Position numbers and translations under genes: made by a program | Source of the DNA: an uncultured Acidobacteriota bacterium | GTDB lineage: Bacteria; Acidobacteriota; UBA6911 | Assembly: GCA_963827655.1 (NCBI GenBank) | Contig: CAWHCF010000025.1 | Coordinates: forward strand, 73,189 to 137,188 | DNA length: 64,000 bases | Direction: 5' to 3' | Part shown: in pieces, positions 5,421 through 57,569 of the stretch | How positions within the stretch are numbered: position 1 is the stretch's first letter | Layout of the letters: the number at the start of each line of letters is the position of its first letter | The notes under the pieces: model-generated | Told to the model about the DNA's origin: nothing | What the model saw: the letters and a program-made list of their open reading frames with translations, nothing else | Database searches by the model: none

Positions 5421-5508
5421 TCGCGTTTCTTGGCGTCTTCGTGGCTTCGTGGTCAGCGCTGCCGAACAGAATACCACCAAGACTTAAAGACGCGAAGAAA
5501 CACCAGGA
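5421..5508. repeat. Octamer-based intergenic repeat, inverted pair
   Basis: CTTGGCGTCTTCGTGGCTTCGTGGT ... ACCACCAAGACTTAAAGACGCGAAGAAACACC. Confidence 0.8.
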
Positions 5509-5585
5509 CATTCCAAAACGATGTTGCGGGATATTGAGAAATAGCCTGGGGGTGCGGTAGCCTAATCGCCTGTGGAGATCGAACA

Positions 5586-6436: not shown

Positions 6437-6455
6437 GAGTCGCTTCGTATGATTC

Positions 6456-6495
6456 TTATGTTTCTTCGTGTCTTTGAGTCTTAGTGGTATTTGTT
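6456..6495. repeat. Octamer-based intergenic repeat, single copy
   Basis: TGTTTCTTCGTGTCTTTGAGTCTTAGTGGTATTTG. Confidence 0.75.
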
Positions 6496-7859: not shown

Positions 7860-7871
7860 CGTCCCTCCTTA

Positions 7872-8023
7872 GGGCTCGCGCAGAAATAACTTCACATTCT
7901 GGCGCGAGAGTCGGTGGTCAATCATGAACCGGTTTCTGTTCGCTAAGCACGCTGAGGATCGCGCCCCTTCGGGCTGCGGTCCCAGGCCCGCAGCAGAATG
8001 CGAACTTATTTCTGCGCGAACCC
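7872..8023. mobile_element. MITE, 152 bp, with TTA target-site duplication
   Basis: TIRs GGGCTCGCGCAGAAATAACTTCACATTCTG / CAGAATGCGAACTTATTTCTGCGCGAACCC; TTA at 7869-7871 and 8024-8026. Confidence 0.85.
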
Positions 8024-9364
8024 TTACACCCCGGAAAGCGTATCGATCGAGAGCCTGCCGGTGCTGCCGCCGTGCCGTTCGACCGGCACGGCGAGCTTGT
8101 CCATCAACGTCACCAGCAAATTGGCCATCGAGGGCTTGTCGGAATAGTTCAGATGCCGGCCGCCCTTGAGCCGTCCCGCCCCGCCCCCGATCACCAGCAG
8201 CGGCAGGTTGTCGCCCGAGTGCTTCGTGCTGTTGGAAATGCCCGAGCCGTACAGGATGGTCATGTGATCCAGCAGCGAGCCGTCGCCGTCGTTCGTCGCG
8301 CGAAGCTTGGCCAGGTACTGCGAGAACAACCGGGTGTGATAACAGTTGATCTTCGACATGCGCTCGATCAACTCGGGAATATCGTTGTGATGAGACAGCG
8401 GATGGTGCGCCTCCGGCACGCCGATTTGCGGGTATGGGCGGGCGCTCTGTTCCTTGCCGATCATGAACGAGATGACGCGGGTCAGGTCAGATTGAAGCGC
8501 CAGAAGCTGCAAGTCCAGCATCAGGGCCAGATGGTCTTCGAAAACCGCCGGTACGCCCTGAGGCTGCTCAATCGCCGGCAGCTCGACGTCGCGCTGTTCG
8601 TCCGCTTTCTGAATGCGCCGTTCGACGTCACGAATCGACTCCGTGTATTCATCGACCTTAACCCGGTCTTGCGGGCCCAGCTCCCTCTTGAGGTTCGCCA
8701 ACTTTTCCGTCACCGAGTCCAGAATGCTTTTCTGCTGCCGTAACCTCTCTTCCCGCGCCGCCCGCTCCGTGCTGCCGCTGTCGCCGAACAGCCTCTCGAA
8801 TACAGCCCGCGGGTTGTACTCCATGGGCAACGGCTGGGTCGGGCTGCGCCACGAGATCGTGTGGGTGTAGGCGCAACTCAGGTTGCCCGTGCATGCGCCG
8901 GCATTGGCGGGGGGATCCATAGCCAGCTCGAGCGATGCCACCTGCGTCTCGCTCGCGAATCGCCTCGCGAGCAGCTGGTCGATCGACACGTCCGCGATGA
9001 TCTCCACTTCGTTTCGTCCGCCGCGCGTCGTGCCCGTCAGAAATGACCCCGAGGCGCCCGCGTGAATGTAGTTCCAGCTCGCGCGGATGCCCGACAGCAC
9101 CAGCATCTGGTTCCGGAACGGCGCCAATGGCTCCAGAATGGGTGAGAGTTGGAAGTCGCTCCCCTCACCCTTGGGCGACCAATACTCCATGGCCATTCCG
9201 TTCGGCACATAGAACGTCTGGAACCGGTGCGCCGGCTTCGCGGCGGCCTGCCCCTTGCGCGAGATCGCGGGAAGCATCGCCTCCAGCAATGGCAGCGCCA
9301 TGGTTGCGCCCAGTCCCCGCAGGACGGTCCGCCGCGGCAGCGATTTTGCGGTCAGGAAATTCAT
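8024..9364 (-). CDS. DUF1552 (HXXSHH) protein with Tat-like signal
   Basis: LPRRTVLRGLGA, YVPNG, SLEL, NPRAVFERLFG, HHPLSHH, EGDGS-like DGDGSLLD. Confidence 0.9.
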   Translation of the reverse strand: MNFLTAKSLPRRTVLRGLGATMALPLLEAMLPAISRKGQAAAKPAHRFQTFYVPNGMAMEYWSPKGEGSDFQLSPILEPLAPFRNQMLVLSGIRASWNYIHAGASGSFLTGTTRGGRNEVEIIADVSIDQLLARRFASETQVASLELAMDPPANAGACTGNLSCAYTHTISWRSPTQPLPMEYNPRAVFERLFGDSGSTERAAREERLRQQKSILDSVTEKLANLKRELGPQDRVKVDEYTESIRDVERRIQKADEQRDVELPAIEQPQGVPAVFEDHLALMLDLQLLALQSDLTRVISFMIGKEQSARPYPQIGVPEAHHPLSHHNDIPELIERMSKINCYHTRLFSQYLAKLRATNDGDGSLLDHMTILYGSGISNSTKHSGDNLPLLVIGGGAGRLKGGRHLNYSDKPSMANLLVTLMDKLAVPVERHGGSTGRLSIDTLSGV

Positions 9365-9376
9365 GTCGGTCTCCAA

Positions 9377-9504
9377 GGCTCGCGCAGAAATAACTTCAGA
9401 TTCAGGCGCGAGAGCCGGTGATCAATTGTTGACCGTGTTCACTGTTACCTCCGCAGCCTGGCAACCTCAGTATCGCGAATGCGAACCTATTTCTGGGCGA
9501 TCCC
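9377..9504. mobile_element. MITE, second diverged copy
   Basis: GGCTCGCGCAGAAATAACTTCAGATTC ... GAATGCGAACCTATTTCTGGGCGATCCC; the first ~55 bp resemble the 7872 copy. Confidence 0.75.
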
Positions 9505-12024
9505 TTGGATCGCCGCGCGTGAGGTCCGCATCAGAAACGTGGGGCTTTTCACAATTCCCACGATGAGCGACGACCATCGGTAGTCACTGGCTGCTGCGTC
9601 GCGGACGATCTTGCGCACTGCCGGCCGATCGTAATAGTCGAGCCGGCGGCCGAGAGCGTACGCCAAAAGCTTTTCGGTGACGGTGCGGGGAAACTGATCG
9701 GGCTGCTCGAGCAACAGCGCACGCAAGCCCGAAAGGCCATCGACCCTGGCGCCGCTCACCGTGGTCCCGGTCGCGTCGACGGGCTTGCCCACTTCGTCAA
9801 CGGTTCTCCACGCGCCAATCGCGTCAAAGTTTTCCAGCGCAAACCCCAGGGAATCAATGACTGAATGACAACTGGCGCAGGCGGGATTCTGCCGATGCTG
9901 CGTCAGCCGCTCGCGTATCGACATCGGCATCGCGCCCGGCTTGTTCTCCGCCAGATTGGTGTCCACGCCTGGAGGAGGGGGCGGTACAGGCAAGCCGAAG
10001 ACATTGTTCAGCAGCCACTTGCCACGTAAGACCGGCGATGTTCGGTCGGGATAGGAGGTTGTCGTCAGCAGCGCTCCCTCCGCCAGCAACCCGCCCCGCT
10101 GATCGGGGTTCGGGAGAGTGACTCGCCGGAAGCGGCTGCCGTAAATCCCTGGAATTCCGTAGTGCCGCGCCAGCCGTTCGTTCACAAAAGTATAGTTGGC
10201 GCGCAAAAGATCGAGGACGCTGCGATCCTCCCGCAGCGTGCTGGCGACAAACAGCTCCGTTTCCCGTTTGAATGCCTCCAGCAGACTGGCGTCAAAACTC
10301 GGATAATGATCCGGATGGACCACCACTTCGCCGACGCGGCGCAGATTCAACCACTGCGCGGCGAAACCGTCCACCAGCGCACCCGTGGCGCGGGGATCGT
10401 CCAACATGCGCCGCACTTGCTGTTCCAGGATCAGCGGTTTGCTGAGCTGTCCGCGCACCGCCAAGTCGATCAGGGTGTCATCGGGAATGCTGCTCCACAA
10501 GAAAAACGACAAGCGCGAGGCGAGCTCCATGTCGCTCAGGCGATAGGTGGCTTGACCAGGCGCGGCGGGATCCCGATGGACGCGCAGCAGAAAGTCGGGG
10601 TCGACGAGAACTCGCTCGAGCGCGATCTGGATCCCGTTGTCAAAGCTTCCACCGTCCTGCCGGCCCCTGGAGAAGAATTCGAGCAGCGTCTGCACGTCGG
10701 CCTTGGTCACGGGCCGCCGATAAGCAAGCCGGGCGATCCTCGAAAGGATCTTTTGCGCGCACGCCTTTTCTTCCGCAGCAGTCCGGGGTTGACAGACGAA
10801 AATTGCGCGACGGCTGGGCGTGTCCTTTGCCGGTCCGGTGATTTGGAACGGGCCTCCGATCTGGACCGAGCCCACGCTTGCGTAATCCATGTATAGCTGG
10901 TCGTTTGTCAGCACCCTGCCTCGTTGCCGTGGCTGAGGGAGACCTTCCGGCTCCCACAGCTCTCTCACGAACGACACGCCGACGACGCGCCGTCCCGCCT
11001 CGACCGGCACGCGGATCTCCAGCCCGGCGTCGCCGGTGACCTGCATGTACTTCTCCCATTCGGGATCGCCGGCAAAGCCCGGTTCACCGTCGCCGGCGTA
11101 ACTGGCCGCGGCAGGCCTGCCCTGGGCTCCCCCTCCGACGGTGAATCGTTTCAGCAGCTTGCCATCAAGCCGGATGTCGAGCTGCTGCGGCCAGCCCATG
11201 CCCATGATGTAGTCCTGATACTGTCTTCGGAGACGAACTTTGATGAGATATTGGGCGTCGACTGGAAAGTCAAAGGGAATCGCGATGCCTCCACGGGATC
11301 CGAACGGCAGGTCTTCGCTCTGCCGGTCATCTTGAACCACGTGCAAGGGAATCGCGAAGGTCTCGATCCCGGGACTCGCGGGAGGCAGACCTATCGCGAG
11401 CCGCGTGACCTGACGGGCCACTGACAGATATCGCTCAAGGTGGGCCGTCGAAATCGTGAGCACATCCGCGAAATTGTCGAAACTGCCGTCCGCGGTCTCA
11501 TCCCCCGGCAGCAGCGGCCTCACATCGACCTCGAGCGCGAACAGGTCGCGAATCGCGTTGTTGTATTCCGTGCGATTGAGGCGGTGGATGGCGCTGATCC
11601 TGCCCGGATTGGGATTGGCCCCCCACGCCCGGTCGATTTCGGTCTCCAGCCAGCCGGCCGTCGCGTGATAGGTGGCCGCATCGGGCCGGGGCGTCCCGGG
11701 CGGCGGCATCGAGCCGGCGCGAAGCTTCGCTATGACTTTTTCCCACACCTCCGCATTGGAACCCGGGTTCTTGAGGTCCAGACGGTCGAGCTCGAGTCCA
11801 GCGGTCCGGAGCGTCTGGTTATGGCACGCGATGCAGTATTTCTCGAAGACCATCTGCGGGGCAGGAAACGTCGAGGAAGCGGGTTGCCTCTGCCAGGCCG
11901 AAGTCTGAACGCTGGATAAAATGACGACGATGCAGCCGCTGATCAAGAAGGCAGTGATTGATGGGCGCACCACAGCCGAGAGCCGCCTGAATCCATGCCG
12001 CATATCGTGCCCCAAAAACTGCAT
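9487..12024 (-). CDS. DUF1592/DUF1588 (PSD/PSCyt) diheme cytochrome c protein
   Basis: CIACH and CASCH heme motifs, RLNRTEYNNAIRDL, ELASRLSFFLWSSIPD, TSPVLRGKW; start 12024 chosen from RBS GGAGG. Confidence 0.9.
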   Translation of the reverse strand: MQFLGHDMRHGFRRLSAVVRPSITAFLISGCIVVILSSVQTSAWQRQPASSTFPAPQMVFEKYCIACHNQTLRTAGLELDRLDLKNPGSNAEVWEKVIAKLRAGSMPPPGTPRPDAATYHATAGWLETEIDRAWGANPNPGRISAIHRLNRTEYNNAIRDLFALEVDVRPLLPGDETADGSFDNFADVLTISTAHLERYLSVARQVTRLAIGLPPASPGIETFAIPLHVVQDDRQSEDLPFGSRGGIAIPFDFPVDAQYLIKVRLRRQYQDYIMGMGWPQQLDIRLDGKLLKRFTVGGGAQGRPAAASYAGDGEPGFAGDPEWEKYMQVTGDAGLEIRVPVEAGRRVVGVSFVRELWEPEGLPQPRQRGRVLTNDQLYMDYASVGSVQIGGPFQITGPAKDTPSRRAIFVCQPRTAAEEKACAQKILSRIARLAYRRPVTKADVQTLLEFFSRGRQDGGSFDNGIQIALERVLVDPDFLLRVHRDPAAPGQATYRLSDMELASRLSFFLWSSIPDDTLIDLAVRGQLSKPLILEQQVRRMLDDPRATGALVDGFAAQWLNLRRVGEVVVHPDHYPSFDASLLEAFKRETELFVASTLREDRSVLDLLRANYTFVNERLARHYGIPGIYGSRFRRVTLPNPDQRGGLLAEGALLTTTSYPDRTSPVLRGKWLLNNVFGLPVPPPPPGVDTNLAENKPGAMPMSIRERLTQHRQNPACASCHSVIDSLGFALENFDAIGAWRTVDEVGKPVDATGTTVSGARVDGLSGLRALLLEQPDQFPRTVTEKLLAYALGRRLDYYDRPAVRKIVRDAAASDYRWSSLIVGIVKSPTFLMRTSRAAIQGIAQK

Positions 12025-12259: not shown

Positions 12260-12511
12260 ATGAAATGCTATACCATGGCACAGCTTCGCGAGCGTCTCGC
12301 GGATGTGCTGAACGAAGCGGAGCGGGGCGTCCCCGTGGTGATCGAGCGGCGGGGAGTCCGTTATGTGCTTAGAGCGGAACCCGCGCCGGCACGCCGGCAC
12401 ACTCGGCCCTCGGTCATCGAAATACTCGATCCTGCCGTAGCAGAAGGCCAGTGGCAATGGACCTGGGGCCGTGAAGGTCTGAGGTTCCGCTCAGGCCGCC
12501 GACACCGATGA
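12260..12511 (+). CDS. Phd/YefM family antitoxin
   Basis: YTMAQLRERLADVLNEAERGVPVVIERRG; ATGA overlap with a PIN gene. Confidence 0.8.
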   Translation: MKCYTMAQLRERLADVLNEAERGVPVVIERRGVRYVLRAEPAPARRHTRPSVIEILDPAVAEGQWQWTWGREGLRFRSGRRHR

Positions 12512-12879
12512 TCCTCCTCGACACCAATGCGCTCATCTGGCTCGAAGGAGGCCATGCGCGAATTCGGCGGCTTGCCCGCAGAGTCAGGCGGCTGTACATT
12601 TCTCCCGCTAATCTGCTGGAGATCCAACTCTTACTCGAAGCGGGCCGGATCCGTCTGCGACCGGGCGGTAGCATCGTCCGAATCGCACAAGACGAGCGCT
12701 GGGTCCTGGACGATCCGCCGGCTGCGGAGTGGTTCACAAAGGCGCTCGAGCTGGGGTGGACGCGTGACCCTTTCGACCGGCTACTCGTGGCGCACGCGCG
12801 ATTGCGGGGCTGGCGGCTGGCTACCGGGGACGCAAATCTACTCAAGCAACTCGAAAGCACCGAGGCGCTCGAAATCTAA
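12508..12879 (+). CDS. vapC: VapC-like PIN-domain toxin
   Basis: MILLDTNALIW ... RDPFDRLLVAHA ... LATGD. Confidence 0.9.
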   Translation: MILLDTNALIWLEGGHARIRRLARRVRRLYISPANLLEIQLLLEAGRIRLRPGGSIVRIAQDERWVLDDPPAAEWFTKALELGWTRDPFDRLLVAHARLRGWRLATGDANLLKQLESTEALEI

Positions 12880-12885
12880 AGCTCC

Positions 12886-12961
12886 GTATCTTGGCGTCTT
12901 AGTGGTATTAGTGTCGCGCCGCAAATACCACGAAGACGCGAAGACACGAAGAAACACCAAG
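12886..12961. repeat. Octamer-based intergenic repeat, inverted pair
   Basis: CTTGGCGTCTTAGTGGTATT ... AAATACCACGAAGACGCGAAGACACGAAGAAACACCAAG. Confidence 0.8.
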
Positions 12962-13037
12962 AATCTTGCGAGGGATAATTGCTGCTTCGGGCGGCAAGAA
13001 CGTCTATACTATTTGAATTCGCCGGAGGACCCTCCTG

Positions 13038-15429
13038 ATGCGTCGATGCGCTTTTCGGATACCACGCTGGATTCCAGTCTTATTCCTGACCGGCGGCTTC
13101 CTCGGCGTGCGTGGCCTCCAGCCTCAATCGAGGGATGGATCCGTCTCTCCGGAACGCGCCGTGGTCAATCGGTATTGCGTCAGCTGCCACAACAGCGCAT
13201 TGAAAGCGGGAGAGCTTGCGCTCGACACGATCAGCGCGCAGGACGTCGGCCAGCACCCTGAAGCGTGGGAGAAGGTCGTCCGCAAGCTTCGCGCCCGTCA
13301 TATGCCGCCGGCCGGAATGCCGCGGCCGGACGAGCGCACTTACGCGGCAGCAGTATCTTCGCTGGAGACCTCGCTGGACCGCGCGGCTGCGGCCAAGCCC
13401 AATCCCGGCCGAACCGATACGTTCCGGCGGCTCAATCGAACCGAATACCAGAACGCGATCCGCGACCTTCTTGGGCTGGACGTCGATGTTGCCTCGCTGC
13501 TGCCGATCGACGAGTCCAGTTATGGCTTTGACAATGTCACGGTCGGAGATCTCTCGCCGACGTTATTGGACCGCTATATATCGGCGGCGGAGAAGATCAG
13601 CCGGCTGGCGGTGGGGCGGCCCAGCCGTTCTCCGGGCGGCGATACTATCAAAATACCGCCGGACCTCACCCAGGAGGAGCACGTAGACGGGCTTCCGGTC
13701 GGCACCCGCGGCGGAGCGCTGATCCGTTATACCTTCCCGCTTGACGCCGAGTACGAGATCCAGATTCGACTGGCGCGTGACCGCAACGAGCACGTTGAGG
13801 GTTTGAACGAGACCCACGAAGTGGAGCTGCTTTTGGACAGGGAGCGGGTGCAGTTGTTCACGGTAAAGCCGCCCGCGCGAGACGGAATAAACTCTGAAGA
13901 GTATCAACCAGCCCACGACAACCTGGATCAGCACCTCAAGATCCGCGTTCCCGTGAAGGCCGGTCCGCACGCCATCGGGGTGACATTCCCGAAGAAGCCT
14001 TCGGCGCTCCTCGAAACTGCGCGCCAGCCCTACCAGGCACACTTCAATATCTACCGGCATCCTCGACTCCAGCCGGCAGTCTACTCGATCTCGATCATCG
14101 GTCCTTATGAAGCGAAGGGCCCCGGTGAGACGCCCAGCCGCCAGCGGATTTTTGTGTGCCGGCCGGCGCGCCCGGGCGAGGAAGAAGGCTGCGCCAAGAC
14201 CATCCTTGCCACCCTGATGCGACGGGCCTATCGGCGGCCGGTTATCGATGCGGACCTTCAAGGGCCGCTCGAGCTCTACCGCGAAGCGCGGGCAGATGGA
14301 GACTTTGACGCGGGCATCGAAATGGCTTTATCCGCGGTTCTGGTGAGCCCCCGGTTTCTGTTTCGTGTCGAGCAAGATCCTGCCGGCGTCGCGCCGAACG
14401 CCGCCTATCGCATCAGCGATCTGGAGCTGGCTTCCCGCCTGTCCTTCTTTCTGTGGAGCAGTATTCCGGACGATGAGCTGCTGAACGTAGCGATTGCCGG
14501 TAAACTCAAAGAGCCCATCGTGCTCGAACAACAGACGCGTCGAATGCTCGCGGACTCCCGGGCGCAGGCTCTGGTGACGAACTTCGCCGGGCAGTGGTTG
14601 CACTTGCGCAATCTGGCATCGATCACACCGGACATGCGTTTGTTTCCCGACTTCGACGACAATCTCCGGCAAGCGTTTCGCCAGGAAACGGAGCTCTTTT
14701 TTGAAAGCATCCTGCGCGAGGATCGGAGCGTGCTCGACCTGTTGAGCGCCAATTACACCTTCGTCAACGAACGGCTGGCCAAGCATTACGGCATCCCGCA
14801 TGTGTACGGCAGCCGGTTCCGGCGCATCACATTGGACGAAGACAGCACGCGAGGCGGGCTGCTGCGCCACGGAAGCATTCTCACGGTGACTTCGTACCCC
14901 ACCCGAACCTCGCCGGTAATACGGGGCAAGTGGATCCTGGACAATCTTCTCGGTGTCCCGCCGCCGCCGCCGCCGGAGGTGGTGCCGGCCTCTGAAGGAA
15001 AATACCAGCATAGGCAAGGGTCTTCCGGTCCGCGAACGGCTGGCCGAGCACCGCTCCAACCCCGCCTGTTCCGGCTGCCATAAGCTGATGGATCCTGTGG
15101 GCTTTTCGATGGAGAATTATGACGCCGTGGGCCGCTGGCGAACGCTCGAAGAAAGCAAGCGGATCGACGCCGGCGGCGGGCTTCCCGACGGCAGCCAGTT
15201 CTCGGGTGTGTCCGGACTCGAGCAGGCTTTGCTGAGCCGCCCGGAGGTTTTTCTCGGCACCTTTACCGAGAAACTTCTCACCTACGCTTTAGGCCGTGGA
15301 GTCGAGTACTACGACGCGCCGGCGGTCCGCAAGGTCGTGCGGGAGGCCCGGACCCAGGATTTCCGCTTCTCGTCATTCATCATGGGAATGGTAAAAAGCG
15401 CACCGTTTCAGATGAGGAGATCACAATGA
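13038..15429 (+). CDS. DUF1592/DUF1588 diheme cytochrome c protein, paralogue (frameshift near 14990)
   Basis: CVSCH, RLNRTEYQNAIRDL, ELASRLSFFLWSS; the C-terminal part with CSGCH is in ORF 14953-15429. Confidence 0.9.
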
Positions 15430-19234: not shown

Positions 19235-19348
19235 TCCGTGACTTCCTTGCATTTTGCGAAGAGGTTTTCGCTGACTGCTGAAGGCTGAATGCTGATAGCG
19301 CGCGGCGTCGACTGATCTCAAATACTTGATTTGCGGCCTCAGCCGCGC
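19235..19348. repeat. ~110-bp element with (GCTGANN)x4 core, copy 1
   Basis: TCCGTGAC..TTGCATTTTGCGAAGA..GCTGACTGCTGAAGGCTGAATGCTGATAGCGCGCGGCGTC..TTGCGGCCTCAGCCGCGC. Confidence 0.8.
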
Positions 19349-23685: not shown

Positions 23686-26600
23686 TCAGAACTGATACTT
23701 CAGAGCAAACTGTATCAGCCGGGGATCCGACACGCTGCTGATAATCCCGGCTCCGGCGGCGCTGAGATTCAGACCGGGGCTGCCAAAGTGGGGCGTGTTG
23801 GTGAAATTGAAGGCCTCGAAGCGAAACTGCAGATAACGCCCTTCCGCGCCCATGGGGAAGTCCTTCGAGGCAAGAAAATCCAGGTTCTTCCAGCCGGGAC
23901 CGTCGATCAGGTTGCGCCCTGAATTGCCGTACTCTCCGCGAGCGATCTGGTCGGCGGTAACCGGCACGACGAAACCGGTGTTGAACCAGCGGTCGATCGT
24001 ACGCTCGGATTCAGGCAGATTGGGATCCCCCACGACGGAGCCGCGCGCCTTGCACACACAGTTCAGGTTGTTGAGAAGCGCCTGGTCTAAAGGCGGCCCC
24101 GAGATCATCGAAAGGATGCCGCCCAGCTGCCATCCCCCGAGAAACCAGCTCGCGGTTCCGGACTGCAGCCAGCGCCTGCCGCGCCCCCAGGGTAGTTCGT
24201 AAAGGAAGCTGAGGTTGTACGCCAGGGTCCGGTCCAGACTGCCGCGGGCGCGATCCCGGTAGAGGTCCTTTACGTACTGCGTCACCCTCCCTCCCTCACC
24301 CTGATTGAGGATCTCGCTGCCATAGTCGATCGCATGCTGCCAGGTAAAGGAGTTGAGGAAGGTGAGTCCGTCGCTGAAGCGCTTTTCCGCCTTGAGACTC
24401 AACGCGTGATAATTGGCGTTCAGAATGTTGTCGTACTTCGTGATCGTCTGAATGAGCGGATAACGAAGGCGAGCCGGCCAGTTGATGGTCGGGTGCGGCC
24501 CCGGGTCGGTTGTGTTCCGTCCGAGCGAAAGGTGAGAGCTCTTGCTTCCGTTATAGCCGACTGTCACAACGGTGCTCCAGGGCAGCATGTGCTGCACATC
24601 CAGGAACCACTGGCCGGTATACGAAGTGGGGAGAAACTCGGGGACCACAACCGGACGGGGCGTTCCGGGGGGATCGTTTTCAGATCGAAGACGGGCGACA
24701 GGTTGGGTAATCCTTCGCTGATCCGGTATACAGCATTGACGAAATCGGGTGTCGACACGTTGCCGCGCACGCGGGGTGGATTGTTGCCGTAAAACCGGCC
24801 GTTCTCGATCCCGAGATAGTCAACGTCACCGAAGTAGATTCCACCTCCGGCACGAATCACCGAGTTCCTGGCCAGTTGATAGGCGATCCCGAGCCGGGGA
24901 GCGAAGTTGTTCTTGTCAGTCTTGCAGGCGCAGTCGCTGTCATCTTTGGGAAAGGCCCATTCCTGGAACTGGATGTTGAGCAGGGCCGAGGTCTCATCAT
25001 CGAGCCCCAGATAGTTGGGGTCGTCTCTCAGGACGAAGCGGCTGCCGAGTGTGTCGGGACCGTCCGGATGGAACGGGCCTCGAAAGAGCTCATAACGCAG
25101 CCCCATGTTCAATGTGAGCCTGGGTGTGATCTTCCAGTCGTCCTGGACGTAAAAGCCCCAGTATGGGTGGTTCGTGTCTTCCCCGGCCGGGCTGAGGCTG
25201 GCACCCGAGCTGGCCCACCCCAGCAGGAAGTCCGCGAAACTGTGGCCCGTCTGGGTGCGGCTTGGACCGGAATTGGGCAGCTCCGCCGTGTACTGGCCTG
25301 TGAAGCCGAAGCTGCCGCGGCTGTCGCGAGCCGAGAGTGAGTATTTGTTCAAGAACTTGTACTCTACTCCGAACTTCACGTTGTGCTTTCCGGACTGCCA
25401 GAGAACGTTGTCACTGAATTGATGGGTGATAAGGTCGTCGTCGTTGGGCCAGCAGCAGCGCGAACCGATGGCGGAGAAGGCGCCCGGTGAGAACGTGGCG
25501 AGTCCATTGTCGTGCTGGCCGAACGCGGTTCCCACGGCGTTCTTGACCCCGAACTGAGCGTTGAGATTCTCGGTGGCGGGGATGTCGAACGCAGTGATAA
25601 ACCGCGTCCAGCCGTAGCGGAATTCGTTGTGCAATCTCGGCCCCAGGATAGTGCTGTAGTTGACCGAGAGGTTATGGCCCAGCATGTCGGTTAGGTCACC
25701 CATGTTCTCATTCGCGGGCAGACTGAACGGACCTGGTTGCGAGCGCAGTTCATCTCTGAGCGAATAACGGACAAAGAATCGGTTGGATTGGTTCAGGTTG
25801 TGGTCCACGCGGAAGTCGTACTGATCGAAGTCGCTCGCCAGCCCCGGGGAAGAGAAGTAGTTGTTGGGCAGGTTCTCCCGGCCCGCGATGTTCGGCAGGG
25901 GATAAAGATCGATGATCCGCCGGGCGAGCGGATCGATCCGGTTGGCCGGGATCCGGTTGCCCGGGAAAGGCTGCCGGACCGCGGCGGCGCCACTCCCGGA
26001 GATCGTGAGGGGATCGTAAATGGTCACGTTTCTCCCGGCGCCTCCGGGCTCCTGCGAGAAGTCCCCCTGGCGCACGGCCGCGCTTGGAACGGTCGTGGTA
26101 TTGGAAAACCCCTCGCGAATGCGCGTGCCTTGAAAGCTCGCAAAGAAGAAGGTCCTGTCGCGCGCAATCGGGCCGCCCACCGTGGCGCCGTACTGGTTTC
26201 GGATGTAGTTCGGCGACTTGGTGCCGGTCTCTCCGGGCCGGGCATTACGGTTGAAAAAGAAGTCGTTCGCCGAACAGGCGCTGTTGCGGTGGAACGCGAA
26301 GATCGAGCCGTGGAAGCCGTTGGTGCCCGACTTGGTCGAGACAACGACGCTGGCGCCCTGACGGAATCCAAACTCGGCCGACGTGTTGTTGGTGAGCACC
26401 TTGAATTCCGAGAGAGCCTCGACGTTAGGCACTACCGCCTGAGCCTGGAAGCCGAGTGGGCCGCGGCTGGTCTTGGAGGTGATGTCGGAACCGTCGAGCA
26501 GCAGATTGTTCTGCGCGACGTGCTGGCCGGCGCTGCGAAACCCGCCTTCCTCCGCCGTCCGATGGCCGCGCCCGGCCTGGCTGGAAGGTACTACACCGGC

Positions 26601-27125
26601 GCTGAGCTGGGCCAGCTCAAGGTAGTTGCGGCCGTTCAGGGGAAGCTCTCGAATGCGTTTTTCGTCGATAACCTGTCCCACGTCCTGAGCCTTCGACTGT
26701 ACCAGCTCGGCCTCGGCCGATACTTGAACCACGTCCGACATCTCGCCCAGCTGGAGTTGAAAGTTGACCCGGGCCACCTGCGCGACCTGCACACGGATCT
26801 CGGCCTGTTGCGAGGAGAACCCGCTCCCACGGCACGTGACCCTGTAGCGGCCCTCCTTCAGCAACGGCACCGTGTAGAGTCCCGCATCGTTGGAGATCAC
26901 GGTCCTCACCACGCCGGTGTCCAGGTTCGTGACGCTGACTTCGGCACTTGGAACTACCGCTCCCGACTGGTCCTTGACCACGCCTTCGATCGAGGCTTCC
27001 TGCCCCCATACTATTCCCGGTCCGAACAGGCAGCCGAGCATGAAGGAAACCCTGACAATCCATTGCAGCGCATGGGCTCCCGGCCACTGCCTCCCCGGGA
27101 TCCGAACTTGCTCAAAAATGTTCAT
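23686..27125 (-). CDS. TonB-dependent receptor, Oar-like (frameshift near 24660-24672)
   Basis: LPLNGRNYLELAQL, TKSGTNGFHGS, QDDWK, DKNNFAPRLG, C-terminal QFALKYQF; RBS GAGGAGG. Confidence 0.9.
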
Positions 27126-27285
27126 TGTGTCCTCCTCGTTGTGGGAAGGCTGGTCGGGCTTACGCCTAAGCACCGGCGTGCCGGCGAATCCTCAGGTTGC
27201 CCGAACCGTCCAACGGTGCTGCTGGGGCAATTACCTGAGTCGAGTCCAGACATACAGTAATTAGTTTATTGAAAGAACTAACCTG

Positions 27286-27315: not shown

Positions 27316-27693
27316 GTTTCTCACCAAGCCCGATGGGGCGCGACTTTACATCGACGGATGACTGCGAAGCAAGCGTTGCGGCGCCGACGCGTCTGTGGCA
27401 AGAGACCTGGCCGGCAGAATCGTCGGCCCCTACCCCAGAATTCGCTTGACCCTCTGACGGCTTCGCACTAAAAACACGGCATAAGCTTCGTAAGGACGCG
27501 TTCGTCTCCCCTGGTCCTGCAGTGGATTAGCAGGAAAATACGCCGACGCGCGCCTCTTCGTGGCGCCGTACCAGGAGAACACCGTGATGCCTTCCGGCGA
27601 CGTCAGCCATCCTGCCGATCTTGATCTCCTCCCGGGCGAGCCGGCATTGGCGAAGGGGGAGGGGGAACCGCCCTCGGCTCAAGCGCCGTCTGA

Positions 27694-29235
27694 CGAGTAC
27701 CAGATAGCGAGGGGCGGCCTCTTTTCGCGCGCAGTGAACAAGCTGTAGTTCTCACCCGGCGAGTGCGGCACGACTTCTCCGAGAGCAGGACACGCTGGCC
27801 CGTTTCTCCGCGGATCCTTTACGCCTGGGCCTCCCCGTCGGGCATGGAAGTGCCATTCCAGGAGCACGAGCGTGCCTTGCTCGCCGCCCTGGAGCCCTGG
27901 ATTCCGGCACAGAAAGGGAGCGGGAGCGTGCCCGACCCGGGCGGCGTGATGACGACGCTGCCCGAGGTAAGCCTTCCCGCGCTCGCGAGGGCGTGCCAGG
28001 CTGCGGTCGACGAGGGGAAGCCGTACACCCATGTGCATGTGCTGGCGCACGGTTATCCGATTGGACGTGCACATAAAGCGCGATTCGGCATGGCGCTGCA
28101 CGCGGAGAATGAGGACCTGCAGGCAGTGACACCAGAGGAACTCGAGAAAGCCCTCGCTCCCCTTGTTGGTCACGCGGTCGTGGTGACGCTGGCGACCTGC
28201 GACGCGGCCAGCTCGACCAATACCGCAACGTCGAAGCGCAGCATTGCCCACAACCTCCATATACTGGGATTCCCGATTGTGGTGGCCTCGCAGCTTCCCT
28301 TCACAAAGCCAGGGTCCACCCTGACGATCGAGACCTTCTACAAGGCACAGCTGGCAGGCGAGGACGTGAGGCTGGCGTTGCATCAGGCGCGTGTCGCCTT
28401 GTACCAGAGCCAGTCGAAGACCGGTCATGACTGGGCCAGCCTTGTCGGATACGTGCAGTTGCCCGAAGGCTATGCCGACCACCTGCGAGACGTCAGGCTC
28501 CAATCCGTACTGGCCTCGCTGAAGACGATGCAGGGGTGGTCTGACAAGCTCGTGGAGGAAGGCAACAAGGATTCAGCACTCTTCGATCGTGTGGCGCAGC
28601 AGTTGCAAGAACGCATTGTGGCGCTCGACCGCTTCCGGAAAGACGCTGAGAACATCGGCCGGCCCGGCGTACTCGGAGAGAATTTGGGCCTCCTGGGAAG
28701 CGCCGAAAAGCGCCTGGCCGAGCTTTGCTTCGTACGCAGCAAGCTGGGCGAAGCCGCTCGCTGGCAACAGTCCATGAGGGAGGCTCTGCAACGCTCGCGC
28801 GACTGGTACCGGAAATGCGCCCTAAAAAACCTCTCGCACCACTGGACCGGGGTCCAGTATCTGTCGCTCGAGGCCATACTCGACGGCAGGATAGCGAATC
28901 CGGGCCGGTGGTACGCCGGCGTTGAAGCCGCAAACCTGGACAGGGAAAACGGGACGCCGATCGATGGCATCTGGGCACTTGGGTCGCTGGCCGAGCTCTA
29001 CCTGCTCGCGCCCCTGGCCGGTCAGACTTTACCTGCCGGCTCGGCAAAGAAGGCCCTGGTGGAGATGAAGGCGCGAGTAGTGGCGGAAGCCGGCGGCGAC
29101 ACGTTTCCCCTCGAGTCGACCGAACGCCAACTCCGCCGCTACGTCGACTGGTGGACCACAGCGAATGGCTTCTTTCCCGGCACGTCGGATCTCGCTGCCG
29201 AGGCGGGGAACCTGTTGCAGGAGCTCCGGCGGTAG
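27694..29235 (+). CDS. CHAT (caspase-like) protease with C-terminal helical TPR-like domain; probably 5'-truncated
   Basis: HVHVLAHG (catalytic His) and VVTLATCD (catalytic Cys), PIVVASQLP, DWASL. The frame is open from 27694 with no start codon until GTG 27763. Confidence 0.75.
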   Translation, partial: RVPDSEGRPLFARSEQAVVLTRRVRHDFSESRTRWPVSPRILYAWASPSGMEVPFQEHERALLAALEPWIPAQKGSGSVPDPGGVMTTLPEVSLPALARACQAAVDEGKPYTHVHVLAHGYPIGRAHKARFGMALHAENEDLQAVTPEELEKALAPLVGHAVVVTLATCDAASSTNTATSKRSIAHNLHILGFPIVVASQLPFTKPGSTLTIETFYKAQLAGEDVRLALHQARVALYQSQSKTGHDWASLVGYVQLPEGYADHLRDVRLQSVLASLKTMQGWSDKLVEEGNKDSALFDRVAQQLQERIVALDRFRKDAENIGRPGVLGENLGLLGSAEKRLAELCFVRSKLGEAARWQQSMREALQRSRDWYRKCALKNLSHHWTGVQYLSLEAILDGRIANPGRWYAGVEAANLDRENGTPIDGIWALGSLAELYLLAPLAGQTLPAGSAKKALVEMKARVVAEAGGDTFPLESTERQLRRYVDWWTTANGFFPGTSDLAAEAGNLLQELRR

Positions 29236-29248
29236 ATTAGATTCTTTG

Positions 29249-29349
29249 TCCGTGACCCCTTTGCATTTTGCGAAGAAATTTTGGCTGACTGCTGAAAGCT
29301 GAAGGCTGAAAGCGCGCGGCGTCCATCTCATTGCGGCCTCAGCCGCGCC
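29249..29349. repeat. ~100-bp (GCTGANN)x4 element, copy 2
   Basis: Near-identical to 19235-19348, with a short internal deletion. Confidence 0.8.
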
Positions 29350-29461
29350 AGGAGTAACGAGAACATGCCCGTCGTGACCTGTTGAACAGGCGGTCGACGG
29401 ACGTGGAACAGGGCTCCACGCTGCTCTCCGCGTGGCCGGTCCTAAATTGCCGGAGACACAG

Positions 29462-30529
29462 ATGGCCGACTCCCGCGTTTACAAATTCGGTGACTCGCAG
29501 CTCACGCTGGCTTTCGGCGATATCACGACGTCGGAGGCTCAGGTTCTCGTCAGCTCCGACGATTCCTACCTGACCATGAGCGGCGGCGTCTCGGCCGCCA
29601 TTCGACGCGCGGGCGGAAACGCTATTGCCCTGGATGCGGCCAAGAAAGTGCCGGTCCCTCTCGGCAATGTGGCGGTGACGACTGCCGGCACCTTGCCGGC
29701 CCACCACATTTTTCACGCAGCCACGATCGGCCCCTCACCCACCCCGATGCCCCCAACCGAGATTCTGGGGAATGCGACGCGGCGGTCCATGGAGTTGCTC
29801 GACGCGTTGCAGCTGAGCTCGATTGCGTTTCCTGCGCTCGGTGCCGGAACCGCGAAGTTCAGCTACGAAGAAGTCGCCGCGCGGATGGCCGACGTCATCG
29901 CCGACGCCCTGCTCAACCGGAAGCGGCCCGTCGACGTCACCATATATCTGTTTGATGACTCGGGTCGCAAGCAGCCCTTTGACTACATCCGGTTCTTCGA
30001 AGAGTTCGCCGCGCGCGTCCCGCGAATCGCGGCCCATGAAGCTCCCGTCCAGCCCTCAACAATCGCGGCCGACGCGGCTGGCGAGCATGTGTTCATCAGT
30101 TACAGCCACCAGGACAAAGCCTGGTTGAAGCGGCTGCAGGACATGCTGCAACCGCTGCTGCGCAAGAACAGCATCGCTCTCTGGAGCGACACCGGGATCA
30201 AGCCTGGGTCGCAGTGGAAAGATGAAATCGAACGCGCGCTGGCAACAGCAAAGGTGGCCGTACTCCTCGTGAGCCCCGGGTTTCTGGCGTCGGACTTCAT
30301 CGCGCAGCACGAGCTTCCGCCGCTCCTCGACAAAGCAAAACAGCTGGGCGTCCGCATCCTCTGGGTCTACGTGAGCGCCTGCTTGTACAAGGAAACGGAA
30401 ATCGCAGCCTACCAGGCGGCGCACGATATCGCACACCCGCTGGATAAACTGCGGACGGCCAAACGCAACGAGGTGCTGGTACAGGTCTGCCAGCAGATCA
30501 AGGCCGCGGTGAATCCGCAGGAGCCGTAG
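29462..30529 (+). CDS. Macro domain-TIR domain fusion protein
   Basis: Macro: GDIT, GGVSAAIRRAGG, HIFHAA, SIAFPALGAG. TIR: VFISYSHQD, WSDTGIKPG, LLVSPGFLASDFIAQHELP. Confidence 0.9.
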   Translation: MADSRVYKFGDSQLTLAFGDITTSEAQVLVSSDDSYLTMSGGVSAAIRRAGGNAIALDAAKKVPVPLGNVAVTTAGTLPAHHIFHAATIGPSPTPMPPTEILGNATRRSMELLDALQLSSIAFPALGAGTAKFSYEEVAARMADVIADALLNRKRPVDVTIYLFDDSGRKQPFDYIRFFEEFAARVPRIAAHEAPVQPSTIAADAAGEHVFISYSHQDKAWLKRLQDMLQPLLRKNSIALWSDTGIKPGSQWKDEIERALATAKVAVLLVSPGFLASDFIAQHELPPLLDKAKQLGVRILWVYVSACLYKETEIAAYQAAHDIAHPLDKLRTAKRNEVLVQVCQQIKAAVNPQEP

Positions 30530-30582: not shown

Positions 30583-30610
30583 GAATGTGAACCTGTTTCT
30601 GCGCGAACTC
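30583..30610. mobile_element. Solo MITE end
   Basis: GAATGTGAACCTGTTTCTGCGCGAACTC, directly abutting TCA (stop codon of the cyclase gene). Confidence 0.6.
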
Positions 30611-31561
30611 TCAGCGTATGGCGACCGGCGCCACCGTGGAACCCGTACCCCCTCTGATTTTCAGGGGCTGAACCACAAATGCGAACTCGTAGATGCGCCT
30701 GGCCGCAAGATCGTCGAGTTTGAGATTCTCGAGCAGAAAGATTCCGTTCACGACCAATGCGATCTGGTGGACCGGGAGGTTCAGGTTCTTGTCGGGGTTG
30801 GGTGAGATCTCCACGGGAGAAGTGTCGGCCCCGATCAGCATCACGTCCTGCCTGGCCAGCCACTCGGCCGCGGCTACGCCGATGCCCGGCGAGCTGGCGG
30901 CATATTTCGCGTTGTCGGCACCCCAAAGCTTTCCCCAACCGGAGTGCAGCAGCAAGGCATCACCGGCTTGAATCTTGACGCCCTGCCGCGCCAGGGCCGC
31001 CTGGATCTCCTCGACGCCGATCTCGTGGTCGGCGGGCAGCATCTCGACGCCCTTCAGGCCCGCGACGTCCACAAGCACGCCGCGCGTGAACAGCATGCCG
31101 ATCTTCTCGACGCCGAGTTTGCTGAAGCCGTTCCGCGTGCCCACGTCGTCGATCCTCACGCAGTTGTAGAGCAGGCCGTCGATGCCTTGATGGGAGAACA
31201 TGTCGAATTGAGTACCCACCTGGCCCAGCTCTGTGACCATCAGTTCTTCGTTGCTATAGCGCTTGTTCGCGCCCAATGGCCCGTTCGTTCGCTTGGTATG
31301 GAGATCGAAGCGCCGCCCGACGCCGAGCGGCATGTCGGACGAAAGCACGCGGCCCAGCTCGATCACTTCACCGGTCCGGATGAGTCGTGACGCGCGCAGC
31401 ACTGTCTCCGGCTTCATATGATTAGCTGCCCCGCGCTCGTCGCCGGCGCCCCATTTGGTCGGACACCGCTGCTGCGAAGCAGGTGGTTGCCAGGATTGGG
31501 CAAGCGCGCCTGCGGAGCAGGCGAGCAATAAGACATTGAATACTGATGTCACGGTTCGCAT
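30611..31561 (-). CDS. Secreted cyclase family (kynurenine formamidase-like) protein
   Basis: WGAGDERGAAN, QVGTQFDMFSH, TRGVLVDV, LLENL, GGTGSTVAPVAI. Confidence 0.85.
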   Translation of the reverse strand: MRTVTSVFNVLLLACSAGALAQSWQPPASQQRCPTKWGAGDERGAANHMKPETVLRASRLIRTGEVIELGRVLSSDMPLGVGRRFDLHTKRTNGPLGANKRYSNEELMVTELGQVGTQFDMFSHQGIDGLLYNCVRIDDVGTRNGFSKLGVEKIGMLFTRGVLVDVAGLKGVEMLPADHEIGVEEIQAALARQGVKIQAGDALLLHSGWGKLWGADNAKYAASSPGIGVAAAEWLARQDVMLIGADTSPVEISPNPDKNLNLPVHQIALVVNGIFLLENLKLDDLAARRIYEFAFVVQPLKIRGGTGSTVAPVAIR

Positions 31562-34409: not shown

Positions 34410-34766
34410 ATGTCCGGCAAGCCTCTCCACTGGCTCGGCTCTTCGAGGACTGACATCCGTGCCTTCCCGCGGGATGCCCGGCGCATCGCGGGCGTGGAAC
34501 TGAGGCGTGTTCAGCAAGGGCTGGATCCACTGGACTGGAAACCCATGACCAGCGTTGGGCCGGGCGTCCGAGAGATTCGGGTTCATACGGGATTGGAACA
34601 TCGGGTTGTGTATGTCGCCAAGTTCGCCGAGGCCATCTACGTGCTGCACGCGTTCGAGAAACGCGCGAGGAAGACGCCCGCGCGGGATGTGGACCTCGCG
34701 CGGCAACGATTCCGGGCTTTCTTGCGGCAGCGGCGTCTCGGCGATCCCTCGGGAGGATTGGGTTGA
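34410..34766 (+). CDS. higB: RelE/ParE (HigB/Gp49-like) toxin
   Basis: WLGSSRTDIRAFP, VQQGLDPLDWKPM, GVREIR, YVLHAFEK. Confidence 0.85.
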   Translation: MSGKPLHWLGSSRTDIRAFPRDARRIAGVELRRVQQGLDPLDWKPMTSVGPGVREIRVHTGLEHRVVYVAKFAEAIYVLHAFEKRARKTPARDVDLARQRFRAFLRQRRLGDPSGGLG

Positions 34767-34768
34767 CG

Positions 34769-35078
34769 ATGAAACTCAAGGTAACACCATCGAGCTGGTA
34801 ACGTGTTCCGTGACTTGGGATTTCGTCGCGAGGAAGCCGAGCATCTTCTGGTACGCGCGGATCTGATGATCCAGGTCCAGAGGCTGATCGCGTCTCGCCG
34901 ACTGAAACAGAGAGAGGCCGCTGAGATCCTGCGCGTGTCCCAGCCACGCGTGAGCGATCTTCTCCGCGGGCGGATTGATCTCTTCAGTACCGACGCACTC
35001 ATTGACATGCTGGCGCGCCTGGGAGCCCGCGTTCGCTTGACCGTCAAGGCCGGTCGTCGCAGCCTCAAGGTCGCATAA
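34769..35078 (+). CDS. higA: XRE-HTH HigA-like antitoxin (frameshift near 34796)
   Basis: MKLKVTPSS-(extra T)-GNVFRDLGF ... QREAAEILRVSQPRVSDLLRG ... FSTDAL. Confidence 0.85.
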
Positions 35079-36767: not shown

Positions 36768-36852
36768 CTTCTTGGTGTTTTATTCGTGTCGTCGAGTCTT
36801 CATGGTACTTGATTAGACAGTTCTAACCGCAAAGGCACGAAGACGCCAAGAT
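36768..36852. repeat. Octamer-based intergenic repeat, degenerate inverted pair
   Basis: CTTGGTGTTTTATTCGTGTCGTCGAGTCTTCATGGTA ... AACCGCAAAGGCACGAAGACGCCAAG. Confidence 0.6.
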
Positions 36853-40564: not shown

Positions 40565-41113
40565 ATGAAAAGTCTGCTAACGATACTGATTCTTGCTGCA
40601 ATGACCGGAACGCTGCCGGCTCAAAGAAGTCGAGTCGAAGTGACCAAGCCCACAACCCCGGAGGATGATTCCAAGGGGAATAGCGCCGAAGTTCCCGACG
40701 CCTATGCGATGTCGGGCCAGTTCGAACGCGTCGTCGTTCTCCGGTTCAAGTACCAGGCCGACTTGCTGGCGGGCATCGAGAATATGGTCAAAGAGCAAAA
40801 GATACGCAATGCCGTATTCCTTTCCGGCATCGGATCGGTACGGAATTACCACATCCACACGGTCAGCAATCGGACCTTCCCATCCAAGAACGTCTTCGTG
40901 AAGGACCCCACAGCGCCTGCAGATATCGTGAGTGTCAACGGATATGTAATCGACGGACGCGTGCACGCACACATGACCTTGACGGACGAGAACAAGGCCT
41001 TCGGCGGGCATATCGAGCCCGGCAATAATGTCTTCACCTTCGCGATCATCACGCTCGGGGTTTTTGGCGACGCGGTGAGTCTGAGCCGCGTGGATGACAA
41101 AACCCATCGCTGA
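40565..41113 (+). CDS. PPC/DUF296 domain protein with signal peptide
   Basis: GIGSV, IVSVNG, VHAHMTL, FGGH. Confidence 0.8.
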   Translation: MKSLLTILILAAMTGTLPAQRSRVEVTKPTTPEDDSKGNSAEVPDAYAMSGQFERVVVLRFKYQADLLAGIENMVKEQKIRNAVFLSGIGSVRNYHIHTVSNRTFPSKNVFVKDPTAPADIVSVNGYVIDGRVHAHMTLTDENKAFGGHIEPGNNVFTFAIITLGVFGDAVSLSRVDDKTHR

Positions 41114-41124
41114 TCTACGGCACT

Positions 41125-41161
41125 AACCACGAAGACTCGAAGACACAAGGAAACGCGAAGC
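41125..41161. repeat. Octamer-based intergenic repeat, single copy
   Basis: AACCACGAAGACTCGAAGACACAAGGAAACGCGAAG. Confidence 0.8.
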
Positions 41162-49481: not shown

Positions 49482-49518
49482 GATCGATGCTGAATTCTAG
49501 CACGCACCCCTCTCGCTC

Positions 49519-49589
49519 TAACCCCGAAGACACAAAGACCCGAAGAAACGCGAAAGCATCTCTTCGAGTCTTTGAGTCTTGGTGGTTTG
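49519..49589. repeat. Octamer-based intergenic repeat, inverted pair (heads outward)
   Basis: AACCCCGAAGACACAAAGACCCGAAGAAACGCGAAAG..CTTCGAGTCTTTGAGTCTTGGTGGTTT. Confidence 0.8.
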
Positions 49590-57151: not shown

Positions 57152-57467
57152 TGAAACTCCCTTTCCGGCATTGGCTTCGAGCTTACCCACTAACAACGAA
57201 AAGCGAATGCTCCTTCTCCACATGCCTGCATTGTGCCTGCCAAAACTCGCGTAACAGCCAGGTTTTCTCGACTTTCGCAGGCGCGATCAATCAAATCCCT
57301 TCATGCGGCTAAACGGAATCCCATACCTCCACCCCGAATTGCACATCTGCCCTGGAGGGCTGCACTCCACATGAGCCGGTGTCCAAATAATAGCGCATCT
57401 GGTTCGAAAAGGATGTTAACTTCGTGTGAATCGTACTTCGGGCTCGCGCTCGGGATCGGCAAAGACT

Positions 57468-57511
57468 CCTGGCGTTTCTTCGTGTCTTCGTGTCCTGGTG
57501 GTATATTTGTT
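57468..57511. repeat. Octamer-based intergenic repeat, single copy
   Basis: CCTGGCGTTTCTTCGTGTCTTCGTGTCCTGGTGGTATATTTG. Confidence 0.8.
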
Positions 57512-57569
57512 TGGTAAACTTCCAGCCGGAACCAGATGGCGCAGCTGCCGATAGCCAAGGGCTGAACTA

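Follow-up and report, generated by a model that had tools for sequence, protein, structure and literature searches.

A truncated CHAT-TPR-S protease gene beside an intact Macro-TIR gene in an Acidobacteriota genome: probably two separate elements rather than one immune module

This account concerns two neighbouring genes of an uncultured Acidobacteriota bacterium (GTDB lineage Bacteria; Acidobacteriota; UBA6911), which lie within a stretch of 64,000 nucleotides (nt), here called the window, covering positions 73,189 to 137,188 of the forward strand of contig CAWHCF010000025.1 (GenBank assembly GCA_963827655.1). Gene 1 encodes part of a CHAT protease with a helical TPR-S-like tail and gene 2 encodes a fusion of a Macro domain to a TIR domain. 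An earlier note on this DNA had proposed that the two form an undescribed immune module, in which a TIR-made signal is read by the protease or, alternatively, Macro sensing of ADP-ribosylation triggers the TIR. The closest described systems are the following, as given in the accessible parts of the cited sources. In type IV Thoeris, signalling from a TIR to a caspase is known, the TIR being a short separate protein within a conserved two-gene operon whose product N7-cADPR activates the protease (10.1101/2024.10.24.620036). Type II Thoeris combines Macro and TIR domains within one locus, where the effector ThsA begins with two transmembrane helices and ends with its Macro domain, the TIR is on another gene and the signal made and bound is His-ADPR (10.1101/2024.01.03.573942). 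In canu a caspase-fold protease, CanA, which is paracaspase-like with an Ig-like C-terminal fold, cuts a latent MBL nuclease encoded downstream of it (PMC12799240), and cleavage of an MBL protein at two loops has also been described (10.1101/2025.09.03.673762). Further modules contain protease-cut MBL, hydrolase or EACC1 proteins, with metallophosphoesterases (MPE) and gasdermins among the protease-associated effectors (10.1101/2025.11.14.688446), and a bacterial gasdermin is cut by a CHAT protease at a Leu-Gly site 21 residues from its end (10.1101/2021.06.07.447441).

How does the window compare with these systems? As in type IV Thoeris, a Glu-bearing TIR adjoins a caspase-fold protease, but here the TIR is fused to a Macro domain, the protease, of the CHAT type, lacks its N-terminus, and none of 83 loci of related proteases repeats the pair as a conserved two-gene operon would. 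As in type II Thoeris, Macro and TIR occur together, in gene 2, but they do so on a single chain with the Macro domain first, which is not the layout of the type II effector, and this Macro domain is nearer to the MacroD and PARP9-14 domains (Z 20-23) than to that of EcThsA (14.1). The pair is neither type II nor type IV Thoeris. Most likely the two genes are separate elements, gene 1 a decayed effector-protease module and gene 2 an independent and intact Macro-TIR gene, with a dispersed repeat lying between them. The two-gene module of the earlier note is by comparison a remote prospect, and stays unlikely when looser forms of co-inheritance are counted with it.

The decay is visible in the protease gene itself. 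The closest relative of its product, P0001, has 624 residues, and 495 of 510 residues are identical between the two (97%, tblastn); this homology begins abruptly at residue 115, with a stop codon four codons upstream, such that gene 1 is without the first 114 of 624 codons and spans residues 115-624 of the family form. The earlier note had already suspected that the gene was headless. No credible match to residues 1-114 of P0001 was found anywhere in the window by tblastn, and an N-terminus hidden by a frameshift was rejected because tblastn and profile searches of the six upstream frames gave nothing before 27703. Of the 120 listed homologues (347 were found), 109 are 600-650 residues long. 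The missing residues include 12 invariant columns in an alignment of 54 sequences, and in a predicted model they make up four strands, as well as helices, of the protease's N-terminal subdomain. A complete CHAT domain is therefore not present: the Pfam CHAT match (PF12770, E=2.6e-17) covers only profile positions 104-285 of 289, whereas in full-length P0001 it begins at position 29.

What remains of the protease is nonetheless as the earlier note had described it. The His-Gly and Cys dyad of the CHAT family is present, with the His codon at 28048-28050 (H230) and the Cys codon at 28198-28200 (C280), both residues being conserved without exception in the 54 aligned homologues. The helical C-terminus matches Pfam TPR-S at E=5.4e-6, where its 27.4 bits lie against a cut-off of 27.6 that the full-length P0001 exceeds. 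The model of a full-length homologue (pLDDT, a per-residue confidence measure, of 89.7) is helical from residue 371 to 623 and all-helical in its C-terminal third, and its nearest solved folds are Csx29 (Foldseek E 6e-7), SAVED-CHAT (9e-7) and separase; searching the CHAT-TPR-S profile against PDB sequences gave chance coiled-coil matches only. Csx29, a TPR-CHAT protein, and SAVED-CHAT belong to type III CRISPR systems, but in the family studied here, in contrast to Csx29, the helical repeat region is C-terminal, and PADLOC gave no CRISPR-type match in 39 open reading frames (ORFs) of the window besides the CHAT domain itself. By its Pfam name, the TPR-S region is a putative sensor or regulator. 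With its N-terminal subdomain gone the product of gene 1 would be inactive, and the gene is best read as a pseudogene-like leftover of an effector-protease module; expression of genes 1 and 2 from the window would probably yield nothing.

Further evidence comes from relatives of the protease. In all 83 loci were compared, 80 of which came from a GTDB scan with the CHAT-TPR-S alignment (91 pattern matches) and 3 from 8 plasmid matches; the homologues share 27-68% identity with the window protein, with many near-duplicates within genera, and the sequence extends at least 1.5 kb past the protease in 70 loci and at least 5 kb in 62. A Macro domain was found in none of the 83 when ORFs were searched with an unfiltered Macro profile at E <0.05, a profile that recovers 125 fetched proteins, its own building sequences included. 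The whole Macro-TIR protein gave only weak tblastn matches there, to TIR parts. The earlier note had held that its module would fall if homologues were never adjacent elsewhere, and among the loci examined this is what was observed.

The intact genes have other partners. An effector gene, encoding an MBL protein, a member of a family here called f3 or an MPE, stands directly upstream of the protease in 70 of the 80 loci with upstream sequence. Over the 83 loci the upstream gene is MBL in 26, f3 in 25, a calcineurin-like MPE in 19 and an S8 subtilase in 3; single families account for 4 more (CCA enzyme, TIR, patatin and f229), 3 have no assignment and 3 end at a contig edge. The spacing is usually a few to 60 bases, and stop and start codons often overlap. 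The MBL partner is of the LmuA, Avs1a or reverse-transcriptase-associated type (PADLOC LmuA, E 3e-68), although against NCBIfam Avs1a (E 1e-61) its 206-215 bits stay below the equivalog cut-off of 420. The MPE partner has about 500 residues and is replaced by the S8 subtilase in 3 loci of the same deep clade; intact pairs with MPE occur in Methylobacterium, and pairs with f3 in Algoriphagus and Paractinoplanes. The f3 proteins, of about 240-250 residues, are gasdermin-like by Atlas features (score 0.98, 231 of 256 features in common), and two of the three best Atlas clusters carry Bact_GSDM on 12% and 33% of their members, whereas Pfam, NCBIfam and PDB sequence searches gave no gasdermin match; the sequences inspected have an acidic tail and no N-terminal Cys was seen in them. 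A further family of 260 residues, f229, was observed upstream of or near CHAT-TPR-S genes (L046:9157-9945 and L005:7934-8719), with no match in Pfam or PADLOC and none convincing in NCBIfam.

Partner type follows the phylogeny of the protease. In a FastTree tree of 81 rows, from which the short rows L042, L072 and L082 were excluded, the partner labels cluster, requiring 13 changes against a minimum of 9 and a mean of 43 after shuffling, and the window copy belongs to a supported 14-row clade in which 10 of the 13 other members are MBL-partnered. No MBL, f3, MPE, S8 or Tle1 partner is detectable in the window, and a remnant of one was likewise rejected, as nothing significant was found. A parallel exists elsewhere: comparison of L010 (2426-2577) with L013 (8436-10552) shows about 2 kb gone, comprising the MBL gene and the protease N-terminus, L010 also being a metagenome-assembled genome (MAG). 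In the window genome, then, a deletion has probably taken the effector together with the first 114 protease codons and left the module dead.

The chemistry by which an intact module would work can be approached through its candidate cleavage sites. The motifs are short and were chosen by eye. All 23 f3 proteins that were parsed, and 2 more read by eye, have a [VIL]L pair at 19-28 residues before the C-terminus, followed by Gly in 8 and by Ala in 6, and [VILT]L[GA] occurs in two loop regions of the MBL proteins (20/20 and 15/20). The f3 site, with its short C-terminal peptide, is similar to the Leu-Gly site described for the Runella gasdermin (10.1101/2021.06.07.447441); no comparable conserved Leu site was found in the Macro-TIR linker. 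A predicted complex between the CHAT domain of L016 and its MBL protein weakly supports such a contact: it scored 0.55 against 0.00 for the best control, a mark attained by 116 of 157 pairs of solved structure and by 2 of 215 mismatched ones, with scores of 0.60 or less holding only 18 of the 157 solved pairs yet both mismatches. Contacts agree to at least 86% and partner pLDDT is at least 83. In an intact module the helical TPR-S part would sense infection, the CHAT dyad would cleave an exposed loop or tail of the effector after a Leu, and the freed effector, most likely an MBL pro-nuclease in the window lineage, would kill or arrest the cell.

The intact CHAT-TPR-S family thus appears to work like canu and the gasdermin-CHAT modules, and to differ from them in its TPR-S tail, gene order and partner range. 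As in canu, or MBL clade 2, a caspase-fold protease stands beside an Avs1a/LmuA-type MBL protein, two candidate gating loops are common to the MBL proteins and proteolytic activation is the likely logic, as far as the accessible parts of these reports go (PMC12799240, 10.1101/2025.11.14.688446). However, strict canu membership does not follow, for the C-terminal third of the protease is all-helical in the model rather than Ig-like, the MBL gene lies upstream and not downstream, and the family exchanges its partners (MBL, gasdermin-like, MPE, S8); in the window itself the MBL gene is absent. With the gasdermin-CHAT operons (10.1101/2021.06.07.447441, as far as accessible) the f3 loci share a partner of similar length, a short tail past a Leu site and a CHAT neighbour, but the gasdermin identity of f3 comes from Atlas features, and f3 is not in the window.

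Gene 2 is intact, as judged from P0121, a 99%-identical homologue with the same start. As the earlier note had recognised, it joins a Macro domain (Pfam E=2.2e-19; about 29465-30034, residues 1-190) through a flexible linker to a TIR domain (TIR_2, E=2.7e-15; about 30077-30514, residues 205-350) that keeps its Glu: Glu283 (30311-30313) is unchanged in all 52 aligned homologues and aligns, with a one-residue insertion, to the EL motif of the solved bacterial TIRs 7uxr and 3h16. By its sequence the domain has the helix-C catalytic Glu expected of an enzymatic, NAD+-cleaving TIR, and would be of that class. In the model of the protein (pLDDT 82), which begins with strands, the TIR matches that of RPP1 (Z 15.1) and the Macro domain has the MacroD fold, with Z 23.3 to the O. 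iheyensis macrodomain (5fud), 22.0 to PARP9 macro 2 and 14.1 to EcThsA.

Its pocket is unusual for that fold. A VSSDD motif aligns to the VNAAN of TTHA0132, [VI]S[ST]D being present in 121 of 125 Macro proteins and NAAN in none, and Ser43, found in 52 of 52 aligned Macro-TIR homologues, occupies what we take to be the site of the MacroD catalytic Asp, after GGV. NCBIfam scores are far under their cut-offs, and the NAAN and Asp features of MacroD-type hydrolases are lacking, but the GDI and GAG pocket motifs are retained, which makes binding of ADP-ribose without hydrolysis likely; the domain likely binds ADP-ribose or ADP-ribosylated targets and is not a typical MacroD hydrolase. Binding by the Macro domain may cluster the TIR domains and so lead to NAD+ cleavage.

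Macro-TIR proteins are a family in their own right. Both domains are found in 107 of 120 listed homologues of near length (820 were found), separated by a short linker in 59 and by a longer, often coil-like insert in 48, and Atlas clusters with this architecture, reached from the homologue P0126, have 144, 64 and 57 members. The VSSDD Macro domain is also fused to DUF4062 and to CHAT (P0391), and the Macro-TIR unit is found attached to nSTAND1 (P0388, which across that unit shares 87% identity with the window protein), to CHAT (P0389 and P0390) and to a sigma-like domain (P0392). Such domain shuffling is typical of counter-invader proteins, in the accessible text of PMC8195603. It fits the alternative in the earlier note that Macro sensing gates the TIR. 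In plasmids none of 46 matching records reaches 80% query coverage, and in phages no match was found.

From this arises a more ambitious proposal, which we regard as possible though doubtful: that the VSSDD Macro domain is a non-catalytic sensor of ADP-ribose or ADP-ribosylation heading an undescribed class of immune receptors that are each encoded by a single gene and whose outputs can be exchanged. The class would comprise Macro-TIR, Macro-coil-TIR, Macro-coil-DUF4062 and Macro-coil-CHAT, and also cassettes on nSTAND1, CHAT and sigma-like domains. Gene 2 would then detect phage-driven ADP-ribosylation, or its own ADP-ribose as positive feedback, leading to NAD+ depletion, and CHAT-fused forms would tie ADP-ribose sensing to proteolysis on one chain, with a different CHAT. 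The link between Macro-TIR and CHAT drawn by the earlier note is unsupported for two genes and is seen in fusions, two of the CHAT-Macro-TIR and one of the Macro-CHAT kind, whose CHAT domains are without TPR-S and only distantly related to that of gene 1 (27% identity; profile E between about 1e-11 and 1e-13). Its general immune flavour and domain calls also stand, but the two-gene pairing is not supported, given the missing Macro domain in the surveyed loci, the truncation, the lost partner and a setting that is no defence island.

Several points weigh against treating the two genes as unrelated, or gene 1 as simply decayed. No stop codon interrupts the frame of gene 1, which makes the loss recent or the junction an assembly join, and a receptor gene nearby is split by a frameshift. 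Natural CHAT-Macro-TIR single chains exist, as noted. In 9 of the 83 loci a TIR-containing gene stands immediately beside CHAT-TPR-S, none with Macro and in about four independent architectures, a short TIR gene directly upstream in L011 and the others downstream (L031, L032, L034, L055-L057, L059 and L060), so that the downstream slot seems to attract TIR fusions. The survey covers relatives up to about 68% identical, with P0001-P0007 (78-97%) outside it, which leaves room for a lineage-specific link to Macro-TIR, and co-occurrence was counted from the CHAT-TPR-S side only.

The likeliest rival is a lineage-specific three-gene cassette, in which Macro-TIR would be an accessory in the downstream slot of an MBL / CHAT-TPR-S operon, acting in parallel, the front having later been deleted. 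The genes share a strand across a 229-nt gap, both are conflict-type in a defence-poor window, and the occupant of the slot varies, being a TIR fusion in 8 loci and a Tle1-like, S8 or TPR-S gene in others; however, the gap is far wider than the few bases usual to the upstream partner, a dispersed genome repeat separates the genes and no surveyed locus has a Macro domain, which makes this improbable. A module akin to type IV Thoeris, in which Macro-TIR makes an ADP-ribose-derived signal that TPR-S reads and CHAT is activated, could draw on the retained TIR Glu and His/Cys dyad, on known TIR-to-caspase signalling (10.1101/2024.10.24.620036, accessible part), on the CHAT-Macro-TIR fusions and on L011, but is very improbable: there is no co-occurrence in the 83 loci, the window protease is truncated, most intact loci have a dedicated substrate gene and no adjacent TIR, and the Macro-fused CHATs form a distant subfamily without TPR-S. 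It is just as hard to credit an assembly artefact, with an intact MBL / CHAT-TPR-S pair in the genome and a contig mis-joined at about 27700, for although the junction is abrupt in an otherwise unbroken, 97%-identical frame and a neighbouring gene is frameshifted, indel errors would not delete 342 nt and a 1.1-kb gene, composition is smooth across the junction and the loss in L010 against L013 is parallel, if from a MAG too. Separate elements remain the preferred reading.

Other observations on the surveyed loci are recorded here. In the roughly 12 kb around the match, L055-L057 and L060 carry a near-identical five-gene cassette (an f6 gene, TIR-patatin, MPE, CHAT-TPR-S and TIR-TPR), the hosts being Smithellaceae and one Dehalococcoidales MAG; L059, from a Cloacimonadaceae MAG, has part of it. 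This suggests a mobile conflict island. Genes for Tle1-like alpha/beta hydrolases, in part TIR-fused, lie beside MBL / CHAT-TPR-S, upstream in L022, L023, L027, L028, L030-L032, L035 and L045 and downstream in L005, L031 and L032; the hydrolase is possibly a second substrate of the protease.

The surroundings of the pair, whose features are collected in Table 1, are unremarkable for defence. The flanking genes encode, by Pfam, a TonB-type receptor, a cyclase and an amidohydrolase. The defence-island setting that the earlier note wished checked was rejected, as PADLOC on the 39 ORFs matched, beyond genes 1 and 2, only ankyrin (2), kinase (1) and PDC-S03 (1), which are generic. The repeat that the earlier note saw between the genes is real: its second copy in the window is 79% identical (blastn, E=2e-24), rising to 85% over an 85-nt core, and it has no match in the 83 loci and none in Rfam. 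Promoter and terminator scans gave signals no better than chance. The short ORF across the junction has GGAG about 10 nt ahead of an ATG at 27587, no Pfam match and none in the 83 loci or in plasmids, and is possibly the 5' stub of another gene. The TonB-type receptor gene (23686-27173, minus strand) is in two overlapping ORFs with an apparent frameshift at about 24600-24650, and 13038-15426 may be split similarly. Two more families of dispersed, partly inverted intergenic repeats occur. Small genes that we take to be of toxin-antitoxin type, without family matches, lie on the plus strand at 34410-35078 (RelE/HigB-like plus helix-turn-helix) and 12508-12876 (PIN-like).

Table 1. Features of the window, and surveyed loci by upstream partner
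Feature	Coordinates or loci	Strand	Remark
CHAT-TPR-S remnant, gene 1	27703..29235	+	frame open up to stop; first GTG 27763
Catalytic His and Cys codons of CHAT	28048..28200	+	invariant columns, alignment of 54 sequences
TPR-S-like helical stretch in gene 1	28597..28869	+	Pfam TPR-S just below cut-off
Dispersed intergenic repeat	29249..29348	none	other copy 19235-19348, amid unrelated genes
Intact Macro-TIR gene, gene 2, 354 residues	29465..30529	+	Pfam; 99% homologue
Short ORF, 62 residues	27560..27748	+	crosses deletion junction, out of frame with CHAT remnant
Repeat family A	5421-5521, 6440-6493, 12878-12967, 36778-36851, 41110-41161, 49515-49588, 57462-57512		intergenic
Repeat family B	7871-8025, 9377-9506, 30583-30612		intergenic
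f3 loci	L015, L017-L019, L021, L025, L026, L029, L033, L034, L037, L039-L041, L043, L048, L049, L051-L054, L061, L064, L066, L068		upstream
MPE loci	L001-L003, L055-L058, L060, L067, L069-L071, L073, L074, L076, L079, L081-L083		

A systematic TIR screen names Macro only as a separate type II effector in its accessible part (10.64898/2025.12.03.692087), the accessible text of PMC13069673 and PMC9503650 holds no Macro-TIR fusion, and a keyword search of the literature returned no description of CHAT-TPR-S or Macro-TIR, although tables in the protease-effector and gasdermin papers may list such loci.

That the two genes are neighbours in the window is most likely due to chance or decay, and the leads are the two families that emerged as by-products. 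One compact CHAT-TPR-S protease family, found in about ten phyla, pairs with no fewer than four effectors unrelated to one another (MBL, gasdermin-like, metallophosphoesterase and subtilase), to which a candidate Leu cleavage site is common where checked; it offers a clean model of effector swapping and a route to the TPR-S ligand and the MPE effector. The Macro-TIR fusions are a sizeable family for which no description was found in the literature searched, and if it is true that Macro gates the TIR, they would represent a new bacterial way of sensing infection.

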